From positions 1 through 29,245 of the forward strand of contig JAGSHN010000014.1 in assembly GCA_029855935.1 (NCBI GenBank): 29,245 nt of DNA, in the 5' to 3' direction. The notes beneath the pieces were generated by a model that saw nothing but the letters and a program-made list of their open reading frames with translations, was not told the origin of the DNA and did no database searches. The stretch comes from Candidatus Thorarchaeota archaeon. GTDB lineage: Archaea > Asgardarchaeota > Thorarchaeia > Thorarchaeales > Thorarchaeaceae. The position numbers and the translations under genes were made by a program. This document shows, in pieces, positions 2,849 to 29,245 of the stretch (the first letter of the stretch is position 1; every line of letters starts with the position of its first letter).

Positions 2849-4150
2849 ATGACGTGGTCGAGCATAGCGACAGGAAGCGGCTGGCACGGTCCGTGCTACG
2901 TCCACGTCCTGGACAGACCGTTCAGACTCTATCAGCTCAGCGAGTTCTCCGTCACGGGCGAACTGCGACAGAGCTACCACACGATGGGCAAGACATATGT
3001 GGCTCTCTACGATGAGAACATGCAGCGCGTGATGATGATACTCTTCGGCGACTCGTGGTACTCCTCGTCAAAGGGCTACTTCAACGTCTACTTCTATCCT
3101 CAGGGCGCTTCATCGTCGTACCGCTCCTCAGGCTACATCTACTCCTCCTTCAGGAAGACGGGGAGGCTCTGGTGGGACGAGTACGATGGCAGTCCGCAGG
3201 GCGCCATCTTTGCCAGCATCGATGGACAGGGATCGTCCTATCCGCTGGCGAGCGTCATCAACGCGTCGCGGGTCATCAAGTACGTTGCCATCCTCGGCTA
3301 CAGGGCCTACTCCTATCCCCTCGTCGAGATGAGGGTCCACGACATCAGAGTTGTCGCGGACCTGAACAGACACAATCCCAACGCACAGGACCCCGATGAG
3401 CCTGTGGCCTATGATGGGACAGCAGGAGCACAGAACGATTGTGCGGGTGCCGAGGCTGCAAGGTACAGTGACGAGGTGCAGAATGATGTTGAGACATACT
3501 GGACTGGTCCGTGGCCAGAGGTGCACGTCGTTGCTCATCGTGTCGACTCTGACGAGAGCCAGTTTCACATTCACGTGAAGAGCGACCTGCTCGGCAACTG
3601 GGAGATTGTCGAACTATCTGCAAACACCTTCGGACTGCAGGCTCTCTCGGACTCTGAATATGAGGCTCTTCAGGATGATACGGCGGAAACCATAGACAGC
3701 ATCTGGGACGAGACACTCTTCTATGCCGCACTTGCAATGCAGATATCGTGGCTCGCCCTCGCTGTCGCGGGTACTCTTGTGTGGTTTGGTGCAAGCACTT
3801 GGTATTTCATTATCGCATTGGCGGTATGGGTCGGCACCTTTACAGCCTACGTCCTTCTGCTCTATCAGTCATTTGTTGAGAGAGGAATGTTTGGTTTTGC
3901 ATATGCAAGGAGGTTTCTCTTGTCTATCATAGGACTAGTAGCGAACATTGTTGCTTCCATGAGAGGCCTTCTAGGTCTTGGTGTGAAGGACCCATTGAAG
4001 CTGAGGAGATACTGGAGCAGGTACGGTTTTAGGAGGATGACAAAGAGCGGGCCAAAGGGTCGCGTCGCCTCTGGAGTTCTTGTTGCATCAATGTTCTTGC
4101 TTGTACTTACTGCTCTATTGGCATCTCTTATCTACATTGGAGGGAACTAA
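2849..4150 (+). CDS. Cassette protein variant 2: constant domain (about aa 1-184) plus divergent hinge and multi-TM C-terminal tip; probably an orphan lacking the N-terminus
   Basis: 433 aa ORF; part of the N-terminal region is near-identical to 28955-29245; in-frame stop 9 codons upstream, no SD and no signal peptide; hydrophobic C-terminal helices. Confidence 0.85.
   Translation: MTWSSIATGSGWHGPCYVHVLDRPFRLYQLSEFSVTGELRQSYHTMGKTYVALYDENMQRVMMILFGDSWYSSSKGYFNVYFYPQGASSSYRSSGYIYSSFRKTGRLWWDEYDGSPQGAIFASIDGQGSSYPLASVINASRVIKYVAILGYRAYSYPLVEMRVHDIRVVADLNRHNPNAQDPDEPVAYDGTAGAQNDCAGAEAARYSDEVQNDVETYWTGPWPEVHVVAHRVDSDESQFHIHVKSDLLGNWEIVELSANTFGLQALSDSEYEALQDDTAETIDSIWDETLFYAALAMQISWLALAVAGTLVWFGASTWYFIIALAVWVGTFTAYVLLLYQSFVERGMFGFAYARRFLLSIIGLVANIVASMRGLLGLGVKDPLKLRRYWSRYGFRRMTKSGPKGRVASGVLVASMFLLVLTALLASLIYIGGN
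3110..3400 (+). repeat. Constant-region repeat, left copy (inverted partner 28955-29245)
   Basis: 3110-3251 is identical to the reverse complement of 29104-29245 (142 bp); colinear with mostly synonymous differences to 3400/28955, then abrupt divergence. Confidence 0.97.
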
Positions 4151-4208
4151 GGACAATGCTGGCCTCTAAGTCAGTCTTTGTTCATGAATCACTGTGGAGG
4201 AACAGACT

Positions 4209-4616
4209 ATGCATCTTGATTGGCTTCTGCTAGGCGCAATTGTAGGCTTCTTGATAATGACTGTCTTGGAAGCGGGAAGTGTCTATGGCATTCGACATCT
4301 CAGAGAACCTGAGAAAGCATGTCCAGCGATTGGCATCTTGTATCTCAGAGCAGTGGAGCGGCGAAGTACAAAGTTCACATATGAGATTGTCGCGTTGGAA
4401 GCTCCTCTTCTGTGTATCCTTCTGGCAGGATATCTCCTTGCGCCATCCGAACTCGTAGACTTCTTGTTCGCACGTCCTGTTCCTTCTATCAACTTATTCC
4501 TAACTCTTGCGTTGGCGGGCTTTCTCGTTGCCGTCTGTTGGACAACAGAAACAACGGAGGGGCCGACTGATGAGGAGGAGCCGACAGATGAGGAGTCCGA
4601 ATTGGAACCAGCATAG
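4209..4616 (+). CDS. Small 3-TM membrane partner protein with acidic tail (candidate immunity for variant 2)
   Basis: GGAGG upstream of ATG 4209; three hydrophobic segments; tail EGPTDEEEPTDEESE with an 18-bp tandem duplication. Confidence 0.75.
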   Translation: MHLDWLLLGAIVGFLIMTVLEAGSVYGIRHLREPEKACPAIGILYLRAVERRSTKFTYEIVALEAPLLCILLAGYLLAPSELVDFLFARPVPSINLFLTLALAGFLVAVCWTTETTEGPTDEEEPTDEESELEPA

Positions 4617-5049
4617 TCGTCTTCAGCATCGCAATGTCATTCTTGGTTCAGCAGGTCTATGAGATGCAGGTGCAACGGATTCAAGATGCAATCAGAGGTA
4701 CCATTCATCCTATTGTAGCTCTTCTGGTTGTGGTTGCGCTGGCGACTGCAATCCGTGCACAGGAGTCATTATCGCGTTCCTGATCAGACTGAGAGGAGCG
4801 AGGTTGTGCGAGCAGAGGGCTGAGTCAATAGGGACCTGAGATAGATGGTCGCCACAGCAGGACTCTTGGGCGTCTTGCCTTGTCCTTGGGTGGGCCACAC
4901 CCTTCTCCACAAGACTCATTACCGATGAGCTCCACTCTGCACGATGTTCTTGAGGCAGGTTACACAGGTCCCGTCTTGGTGCAACTACTTCCAACCCCGA
5001 AACGATCTCTCTATGTTCAGTCGGGGCTGACGGTCCGGGAGGTGATTCT

Positions 5050-27638: not shown

Positions 27639-27761
27639 TCAGTCCTTCGAAGATAGAGACCAGAAGAAGATTGTCGGGCCGCCCCACTTGAAGATACCGG
27701 GCATCGCCGAAAGAACGGGGCACAGTTGCCTGTTTCCAGTGCAGACGTGGCCAATTCTTGG

Positions 27762-28187
27762 CTATGTGGGAGAAACTTCTGTTCTGTCAAGGGCCTCACG
27801 TTTCTCTCTTCGATAGTCCAGAAGCTCTCCCAAGGGCAGTAGCATCCACGGAACTGTAGCCACGAGGAGCCCGTCCAACAACTCATAGGGGTACAGAAGC
27901 ACTGTCTGGACGAGGATTGCGATTGCTGGCAAGAACATCATGAGGCCAAGAACAACGTGACCAATCAATCGTTTCTCACAGAAATCGACAAATCGTTGGA
28001 ATGGGTTCGTTGAATCGAAAGAGGATTTCAACCTTGTTCTTGCAACCCAAGCCAAGAGAAGACCAAATATGAAGAATGGGATCGTAAAGAGCACCGTGTA
28101 GAATGCCAAGTAGATTATCTCCGTAGAGAGTGAACCGGTTCCTAGAATGTCGAGGATGTGTTTTGCAGATTGAGTATTCTTCGCCAT
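27762..28187 (-). CDS. Small 3-TM membrane partner protein (candidate immunity for variant 3), family B
   Basis: ATG overlaps the upstream stop (TAATG); three TM segments; PLGELLDYRREKRE tail. Confidence 0.8.
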   Translation of the reverse strand: MAKNTQSAKHILDILGTGSLSTEIIYLAFYTVLFTIPFFIFGLLLAWVARTRLKSSFDSTNPFQRFVDFCEKRLIGHVVLGLMMFLPAIAILVQTVLLYPYELLDGLLVATVPWMLLPLGELLDYRREKREALDRTEVSPT

Positions 28188-29245
28188 TATGTTCTCACTA
28201 CTTCACCCATATCGTAGGCTATGCGCTCAAGAAGATCTGTGAATATCAAAGCAGCAGCCAGTGCCACTATTGGCAGCATCATAAAAAGGCTTAGTGCGAA
28301 AATGGCGTATGAGGCCAATGTGAATTCCTGAGCTATCTGTTCTAGGCCAAAGACCCTGTAGATCAAAGAGGGTAGACGTCCTGCTGCAGCATAAGTACTT
28401 GCAACAACCCCGAAAATGCTTGCCGCAAATCCGACAAGCATATACCCTGCCGCGACCCGATCAATTGCTGACTCGATTACCATATGACTGAATTCAAGAA
28501 TCCACATGTGCCATAGAACAAGAAGTGCTATTGCAGCTGCAGCAAAGCACAGTTGAGCAAAAGTGTTCCCTTTCTCGGCGAGAGGAGCAAGGATTCTGGC
28601 AAGAAGATATGCAGCATTGACGCCAAGCGTCAAGCTCTGTAGGTCTAGGAAGTACGGTGCGAACTTCTCGGACGAACTCTGAACCAACGCCTCCATCTCA
28701 GAGTCACTCATTGACGATTCGTCAATCAGTTGAAAAGCAAAGTCGTCAATTCCCCACATGCCGAGCAGGTCAACCCATAGCGCTATCTGAAAAGCCACTG
28801 TGGGATACGGACTGTAGTCGACAACAAAATGTACTACTGGCCACCAACCAGTCCAAAAGACACTGAGATGGTCAGGTGCATCGTTCTGTGCATTCTCAAG
28901 GAAGCTATCAAGTGCTTTGCTATCGGGTAAACGTGTGCCATCAAACTCCTGAAACTCATCCGGGTCCTGTGCGTTGGGATCGTGTCTGTTCAGGTCTGCG
29001 ACGACGTTGATGTCGTGGACCCTCATCTCGACGAGGGGATACGAATAGGCTCTGTAGCCGAGGATGGCGACGTACTTGATGACTCTTGAGGCAGTCACCA
29101 CGTTCGCCAGCGGATAGGACGATCCCTGTCCATCGATGCTGGCAAAGATGGCGCCCTGCGGACTGCCATCGTACTCGTCCCACCAGAGCCTCCCCGTCTT
29201 CCTGAAGGAGGAGTAGATGTAGCCTGAGGAGCGGTACGACGATGA
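28187..29245 (-). CDS. 5'-partial cassette protein variant 3: constant domain plus divergent multi-TM tip
   Basis: Frame is open to the window edge (SSSYRSSGYIYSSFRKTGRLWWDEYDG...); near-identical to variant 2 up to NAQDPDE, then diverges, keeping only DGT, WTGxWP, DLLGxW and SDSExEAL. Confidence 0.88.
   Translation of the reverse strand, partial: SSSYRSSGYIYSSFRKTGRLWWDEYDGSPQGAIFASIDGQGSSYPLANVVTASRVIKYVAILGYRAYSYPLVEMRVHDINVVADLNRHDPNAQDPDEFQEFDGTRLPDSKALDSFLENAQNDAPDHLSVFWTGWWPVVHFVVDYSPYPTVAFQIALWVDLLGMWGIDDFAFQLIDESSMSDSEMEALVQSSSEKFAPYFLDLQSLTLGVNAAYLLARILAPLAEKGNTFAQLCFAAAAIALLVLWHMWILEFSHMVIESAIDRVAAGYMLVGFAASIFGVVASTYAAAGRLPSLIYRVFGLEQIAQEFTLASYAIFALSLFMMLPIVALAAALIFTDLLERIAYDMGEVVRT
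28955..29245 (-). repeat. Constant-region repeat, right copy (inverted partner 3110-3400); runs off the window edge
   Basis: Direct comparison: 142 bp identical, then colinear high similarity. Confidence 0.97.

Follow-up and report, generated by a model that had tools for sequence, protein, structure and literature searches.

Why does an Asgard archaeal contig carry two identical stretches of coding DNA that face each other across 26 kb? The stretch in question, hereafter the window, is the entire 29,245-nt contig JAGSHN010000014.1 (C7) of the Candidatus Thorarchaeota archaeon assembly GCA_029855935.1 (G000), a genome bin of 32 contigs and 2.97 Mb that is 97% complete. Near its left end and at its right end, the window holds inverted copies of a 142-nt sequence, each inside the constant region of a gene with a variable 3′ part, and the original prediction for this locus was a pair of repeats positioned to swap gene tips by inversion in the manner of a shufflon. 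Our analysis favors another answer, to which we assign a probability of about 0.65. The two genes would belong to a multi-copy family of polymorphic-tail cassettes, homology among the copies would have produced both the tract of identity and the break in the contig, and the opposed orientation would be the result of an old illegitimate inversion.

The repeat itself is exact and is positioned as the original prediction described. Window positions 3110–3251 equal the reverse complement of 29104–29245 at 142 of 142 bases. The left copy, on the plus strand, lies within the lectin-like constant domain of gene 2849–4150, and position 3110 is codon-aligned in that open reading frame (ORF); the right copy, on the minus strand at the contig end, forms the 5′ opening of ORF 29245..28187. 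Both copies are in the same frame and the variable 3′ parts of the two genes, which we call tails, point inward. The crossover geometry drawn from this arrangement also holds: recombination between the copies would turn positions 3252–29103 around and leave each 5′ part reading in frame into the opposite tail, with the partner gene of that tail behind it. This interior contains two toxin–antitoxin-type pairs, relics and partner-like membrane genes as well as three large genes for beta-helix/Ig surface proteins. At 91% identity the repeat arms reach 312 nt (3110–3421 and 28934–29245), and the 170 nt beyond the exact tract contain 28 differences between the arms. The adjoining stretch 3252–3400, which had been characterized as synonymously diverged, is mostly but not purely so, with 11 synonymous and 5 non-synonymous codon changes. 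Permutation of the 37 differences found over 588 aligned nt gives a probability of ~0.001 for a clean run of at least 142 nt. Beyond the exact tract the arms are mosaic, as the right-arm block after 3252 is common to a copy on contig C26 of the same bin and the left-arm block is common to a relic near 24.4 kb. The combination of mosaic blocks with an over-long identical tract beside diverged sequence fits gene conversion or recombination among cassettes, and in this respect the earlier proposal of a recent conversion or recombination event agrees with the patterns observed here.

Contig ends and read depth both indicate that the repeat is one of at least four to five near-identical constant regions and not one member of a pair. 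The first 51 nt of the repeat recur at the right end of contig C9 and at the left end of contig C22, and the right end of C7 overlaps the reverse complement of C9 and the forward strand of C22 by 51 nt each, creating an unresolved fork. C9 and the reverse complement of C22 each carry the head part of the same constant region; the two are identical over their last 151 nt, differ at two positions over the last ~280 nt and diverge completely upstream. Both stop at the equivalent of position 3160 because a contig leaves the reference after 3159, and their heads depart from the C7 head at a few bases, among them 3108, where C9 and C22 have G and C7 has C. More diverged copies of the constant region occur in the window at 6630–6819 and at 24305–24754 (minus strand, a relic in the right arm with a D1-type block after the repeat), and elsewhere at C22:927–445, at C26:1196–930 and in three places on C25. 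The locus was found in one public sequencing run only, a hydrothermal-vent metagenome (X1) available as Logan contigs from a k=31 assembly, and we placed these contigs on window positions 2400–4700 and compared their depths. Unique flanks have a depth of ~22 and left-arm-type sequence directly after the repeat has a depth of 22, while the C9/C22-type head reaches 65.7 (about three times the 21.9 of unique flanks), right-arm-type sequence directly after the repeat reaches 80.8, the repeat bins reach 130–196 (6–9 times single copy) and positions 3324–3400 reach 442. Coverage of the constant segment therefore exceeds two copies, a point that the original prediction had singled out for checking and that tells against its two-copy pair, and at least three near-identical heads exist (C9, C22 and one that is unplaced), of which the right-end gene has one. 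The window ends inside the repeat and the break is repeat-induced, as had been supposed. As an incidental observation on assembly, contig pairs of this bin with an overlap of exactly 151 nt are numerous (for example C25/C26, C5/C28 and C12/C18) and could be merged, so that the bin is less fragmented than its 32 contigs suggest.

The same contig ends and depths bear on two other explanations of the repeat. C9 and C22 could be alternative structures of a single right-end locus in co-existing strains, produced for instance by an earlier recombination between cassettes, and such population heterogeneity would suit both the hydrothermal-vent metagenome from which the sequence derives and the way in which C9 and C22 go from two differences in ~280 nt to complete divergence. 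However, the head depth is almost exactly three times single copy, where alternative structures of one locus would contribute fractions summing to one, and C9 and C22 both carry otherwise unique flanking genes; we therefore regard this explanation as unlikely. An assembly artefact, in which consensus or bubble collapse created the perfect identity or the U1–repeat–D1 join while the true copies differ, would draw on the high depth and multi-copy nature of the region, on the several contigs that break there and on the origin of the sequence as a metagenome-assembled genome with 2.8% contamination. We consider an artefact very unlikely, as the independent k=31 Logan assembly has, among the variants listed, no alternative letters at 3068–3252 while low-depth variants are present elsewhere, and the left head and left tail have matching single-copy depths (21.9 and 22.2).

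If the constant region is present in many copies, the question becomes why two of them should face each other. We surveyed strand orientation across 81 genomes of the order, 41 of which contain the constant domain, and found that 31 of the 33 contigs with at least two constant-domain matches carry them on one strand, with mixed orientation confined to C7 and to contig C191 of genome G071. By this survey of sequences, the inverted geometry is not a conserved design. A specific origin for the opposed orientation is suggested by two junctions. In the window, a constant-region head relic at 6630–6819 on the plus strand ends at the equivalent of 3140 and abuts a beta-helix (NosD-like) surface protein gene on the opposite strand (8272..6812), which is truncated at its 3′ end by this junction (J1, 6819|6820). 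On C26, the first base of a minus-strand orphan cassette (C26:1198) corresponds exactly to 3141, and this cassette borders on plus-strand DNA. Joining C7:6630–6819 to the reverse complement of C26:1–1198 yields an in-frame cassette in which the repeat sequence is restored exactly across 3140|3141, and joining the reverse complement of C7:6820–8272 to C26 from position 1199 onward yields an uninterrupted beta-helix protein of 652 amino acids (aa), complete with a WDDY/DxxP motif, an Ig repeat, a Thr-rich linker and a C-terminal anchor. This reconstructed protein aligns to the paralogue encoded at 9541–12660 in a single high-scoring segment pair that spans the joint (residues 1–593 versus 384–979), and feoAB is next on C26 after its gene. 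A search of same-genus genomes for an ortholog of the reconstructed gene returned only paralogue-level matches of at most 44%. The junctions C7:6819|6820 and C26:1198|1199 are exactly reciprocal, with no bases lost or gained, and no microhomology was seen by eye at the breakpoints.

Strand orientation across the contigs follows the same division. The cassettes of the C7 right arm and C22, the C25 relics and the C26 orphan all fall inside the proposed inverted segment between these junctions, and every one of them is on the minus strand; those of C9 and the C7 left arm fall outside it and are without exception on the plus strand. The head-to-head geometry of the window is thus best explained as a probable side effect of a two-break inversion, accidental and non-homologous, in which two genes were destroyed. 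The other contig of mixed orientation, C191 of G071 in the same genus, contains a 189-nt inverted pair of constant-region fragments with 90% identity (131–313 versus 2874–3062), and near 2864–2875 a plus-strand fragment (aa 130–205) abuts a minus-strand fragment (aa 5–88), forming another rearrangement scar.

What kind of gene family do these cassettes belong to? The left copy of the repeat lies in P0001 (2849..4150, plus strand), a short-form or orphan cassette gene of 433 aa. In a structural model of the protein (mean predicted local distance difference test score, pLDDT, 74), the constant domain at residues 13–170 forms a lectin-like sandwich related to galectin and GH16 folds, a disordered hinge precedes a small four-strand sheet at 213–260, and tail D1 consists of 4–5 long membrane helices at 289–430. 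The gene is followed by the three-transmembrane (3-TM) partner gene of tail D1 (4194..4616, plus strand), which has no family match. At the other end of the window, P0002 (28187..29245, minus strand) runs off the contig at its 5′ end and lacks a start; it contains the constant domain from aa 88 onward and tail D2, and is accompanied by a 2-TM partner gene (27762..28187, minus strand). A third family member is represented at the left contig end by its tail L (3..635, plus strand), the 5′ end of the gene being cut by the contig end, and by the partner gene of that tail (613..1296, plus strand). Pfam searches gave no match for P0001, P0002 or their partner genes, and the partner genes encode small multi-TM proteins without similarity to one another. 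P0001 lacks a signal sequence, although the fold of its domain is typically extracellular, and its homology with the long-form gene on C22 begins only ~15 nt upstream of the P0001 ATG; it may be a spare cassette or else a short form of the gene.

The long form is represented on C22 by an 841-aa open frame (2523..1, minus strand) that ends in the constant domain and is open at the contig end. The frame encodes a membrane anchor near aa 77–100, then an alpha/beta domain and then two copies of the constant domain, the first diverged and the second 98% identical to aa 1–104 of P0001. In the model of this protein (pLDDT 75), residues 109–270 match a SAVED-CHAT protease structure (8tl0_A; Z-score 11.9, root-mean-square deviation 3.9, 156 residues aligned), and residues 488–699 match CBM, GH16 and lectin jelly rolls (Z-score 18.4). 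The CHAT-like region, modelled within the longer protein, has no Pfam match; H172 and C207 are invariant in an alignment of 26 sequences and are candidates for the catalytic His–Cys dyad of a clan CD (caspase/CHAT-like) peptidase. From these models, the full-length form, typically ~1,100–1,300 aa, is predicted to consist of a signal anchor, a CHAT/caspase-like domain, a middle beta domain, two tandem ConA-like lectin domains and a hypervariable membrane tail. Full-length relatives measure 1,057–1,431 aa, and every homologue with a name is from a Thorarchaeota or Promethearchaeia bin; in the Protein Atlas the N-terminal domain matched unnamed clusters only.

Variation in the family is concentrated in the tails. 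Mean pairwise identity among 19 full-length proteins is 35–63% over the body and 13–18% over the tail, and the tails fall into discrete types: tail D2 is 83% identical to that of P0008 from another bin while the constant parts are only 70% identical, and tail D1 is 78% identical to another fragment. A search for a full-length protein with tail D2 gave none closer than 48%, and among 80 species representatives of the order no counterpart of tails D1 or D2 exceeded 34% identity. Homologues often begin at varied points within the constant domain, from aa 46 to aa 161, and spare cassettes composed of a truncated constant fragment and an alternative tail are found downstream of the main gene on G029:C77, G009:C12, G003:C221 and G025:C110. 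In the same-genus genome G009, a main gene (1,161 aa), a partner, an orphan and a second partner follow one another on one strand. The tail of the G009 main gene is 60% identical to tail L (C7:3–614) and the gene that follows it is 52% identical to the partner of tail L (C7:643–1284), while the G009 orphan is 61% identical to the C26 copy and its partner is 41% identical to the end of C25. In the two pairs examined, tail and partner are thus conserved jointly between G009 and G000 (60%/52% and 61%/41%), and by this synteny the tail that goes with the long form may be tail L, at the left end of the contig. Together, these comparisons describe what appears to be a Thorarchaeota-specific, multi-copy, cassette-type family whose layout resembles that of polymorphic toxin/immunity loci with orphan cassettes, and any role of the tails and partners in toxicity, immunity or recognition is putative.

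Two known classes of locus share parts of this organization. Polymorphic toxin systems (PTS) with orphan C-terminal toxin (CT)/immunity cassettes include Rhs, CdiA and MafB, and one of the listed PTS architectures pairs Sec-type export with a caspase-like peptidase domain (Zhang et al. 2012, PMC3482391). As in the bacterial systems, the Asgard family combines a large exported protein, a constant body, a polymorphic C-terminal module and an adjacent small cognate gene, and its arrays of spare cassettes keep a truncated constant piece that is usable as homology for recombination. The Asgard family differs in being archaeal, restricted to Thorarchaeota and without Pfam coverage, and in its parts: the polymorphic module consists of 4–5 membrane helices and not of a soluble nuclease, deaminase or peptidase, the partners with their putative immunity role are small multi-TM proteins, and the peptidase-like domain is N-terminal instead of directly preceding the tail. 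Among archaeal systems, the one that comes closest is the Thermococcales VARTIG module (Makarova et al. 2021, PMC8416519), likewise a PTS-like hypervariable module in which a large surface protein with a hypervariable C-terminal part is followed by variable downstream genes, with recombination between genomes inferred. VARTIG is confined to Thermococcales, and its large arCOG07710 protein consists of Ig domains of which the C-terminal one is hypervariable, whereas the Asgard family has CHAT-like and ConA-like lectin domains, membrane-helix tails and explicit orphan arrays.

The explanation that we favor joins this organization to the junctions described above. A long gene and its tail-specific partner would head an array of spare cassettes, each made of a truncated last lectin domain with another tail and another partner. 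On the simplest account, gene conversion or homologous recombination would keep the shared constant DNA near-identical in mosaic blocks, and gene 2849–4150 and the right-end gene would share 142 identical nt because their constant DNA has been maintained in this way. The assembler would have broken the contig in the repeat because this DNA is near-identical and multi-copy. The island would originally have been co-oriented until a non-homologous two-break inversion, with one break within the constant region of a cassette and the other within the beta-helix surface protein gene, flipped the segment from C7:6820 to C26:1198, and the two 142-nt copies would now face each other because that earlier event turned part of the island around. 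A RadA-dependent crossover between the inverted copies would be possible and would exchange tail-plus-partner units in frame, and under the favored explanation such a swap is probably an incidental consequence of the layout and not the work of a dedicated switch.

Several considerations weigh against this explanation. We infer the order and linkage of C9, C7, C22, C25 and C26, which are not assembled into one sequence, and the inversion model requires C7:6820 to C26:1198 to be collinear. Depth in a metagenome sums all organisms, so that the three copies of the head may partly reflect related strains. It is the patterns of identity alone that point to gene conversion, and the tails and partners, whose toxin/immunity function is putative, match no known family. 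Frequent homologous inversion between the copies, used by the cell, would also be compatible with the data.

The last of these points is the core of a rival reading, a reversible switch that is shufflon-like in effect, with RadA-mediated crossover regularly flipping the 26-kb interior and thereby phase-varying the tail of the long form. The inverted in-frame geometry with inward tails, an identity tract longer than chance allows and the presence of opposed constant fragments on a second contig in same-genus G071 all speak for such a switch. RadA is encoded elsewhere in the genome, and if the right-end gene has the head of the C22 long form, inversion would join tail D1 to a full-length protein. 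A flip would have a phenotype only in that case, and the right-end head may instead belong to the start-less C9 orphan, for which inversion would be without phenotypic effect. The original prediction noted that no recombinase is in the window, and a Pfam search that covered the ORFs of C9, C22 and the C25/C26 flanks in addition to C7 detected none; the genome as a whole has one tyrosine recombinase match (PF00589, on C27) and no serine recombinase match (PF00239). We found no short crossover sites, the relevant repeats being only long coding homologies of a multi-copy paralogue family, and a degenerate pattern scan of metagenome contigs for head–repeat–tail junctions found nothing. Assembly continued without a break across the left copy, and head and tail depths pair as 22/22 and ~66/~81, hinting weakly at one dominant arrangement. 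An inverted layout is exceptional (2 of 33 multi-copy contigs), and the inversion that would have produced the one seen here cost the genome a cassette and a surface protein gene. We accordingly judge it improbable that RadA recombination reversibly flips the 26-kb segment to exchange membrane tail and partner on the full-length CHAT/lectin surface protein. RadA-type recombination survives from the original prediction as a route that the genome and the geometry both permit, but hardly as a regular switch, and the shufflon-like design finds support only in its geometry, in view of the multi-copy repeat, the missing local recombinase and short sites, the one-strand arrays of relatives and the single past non-homologous inversion that would account for the opposed orientation and broke two genes.

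Comparison with established inversion systems leads in the same direction. Like the R64 shufflon (pilV, Rci), the Asgard locus has a constant N-terminal coding part that inversion could fuse in frame to alternative C-terminal parts. The R64 system relies on a dedicated tyrosine recombinase and on short sfx sites (~19 bp) that flank several small invertible segments, whereas the Asgard locus lacks a local recombinase, its repeats are long, coding and present in more than two copies, its segment spans 26 kb and its inverted layout is not conserved in relatives. Phase-variable Type I restriction loci undergo recombinase-independent inversions between inverted hsdS repeats, and there too inverted homologous repeats within coding sequence permit in-frame exchange of variable halves by general recombination. 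In the hsdS loci the inverted design is conserved, a recombinase is often associated and both orientations have been shown to occur; in the Asgard locus the inverted design is unconserved, no recombinase is nearby and switching is known only as a possible geometry.

Seen in the context of the cassette family, the repeat itself is ordinary, a case of paralogous homology with a repeat-induced contig break, and what it exposes is a well-defined, unannotated Asgard cassette system that is built like polymorphic toxin/immunity loci but with membrane-helix tails. Systems for conflict or recognition between cells are scarcely known in Asgard archaea. The reciprocal junctions provide a base-precise example of how such islands become rearranged, and together with the inverted copies they offer a natural setting in which to ask whether tails can be re-assorted by homologous inversion. 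Should the improbable switch prove true, the 26-kb flip would give a polymorphic toxin-like or kin-recognition system a recombinase-free archaeal counterpart of shufflon- or hsdS-type switching, and would be the first recombinase-free tail-switching inversion described in archaea.

Other genes of the window and its neighbors show related patterns. Among the constant-region relics lies a toxin–antitoxin-type pair on the minus strand, encoding DUF2283 (23876–24145) and DUF4258 (23640–23879) proteins, and an MNT-type nucleotidyltransferase gene is located at 25401–25859 on the minus strand. Small multi-TM partner-like genes without an adjacent intact tail occur at 1705–2759, 5050–6610, 24799–25263 and 27219–27638 and at C9:3140–3820; no similarity was detected among them, and the pattern is like that of spare immunity genes. 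Two giant beta-helix/Ig surface protein genes converge in the center of the window (12816–17369 on the plus strand and 18827–23026 on the minus strand) and share inverted repeats of their own, one of 116 nt with 91% identity (13008–13123 versus 22734–22849) and one of 328 nt with 71% identity (16551–16878 versus 19015–19342), which suggest that conversion may operate among these paralogues too.

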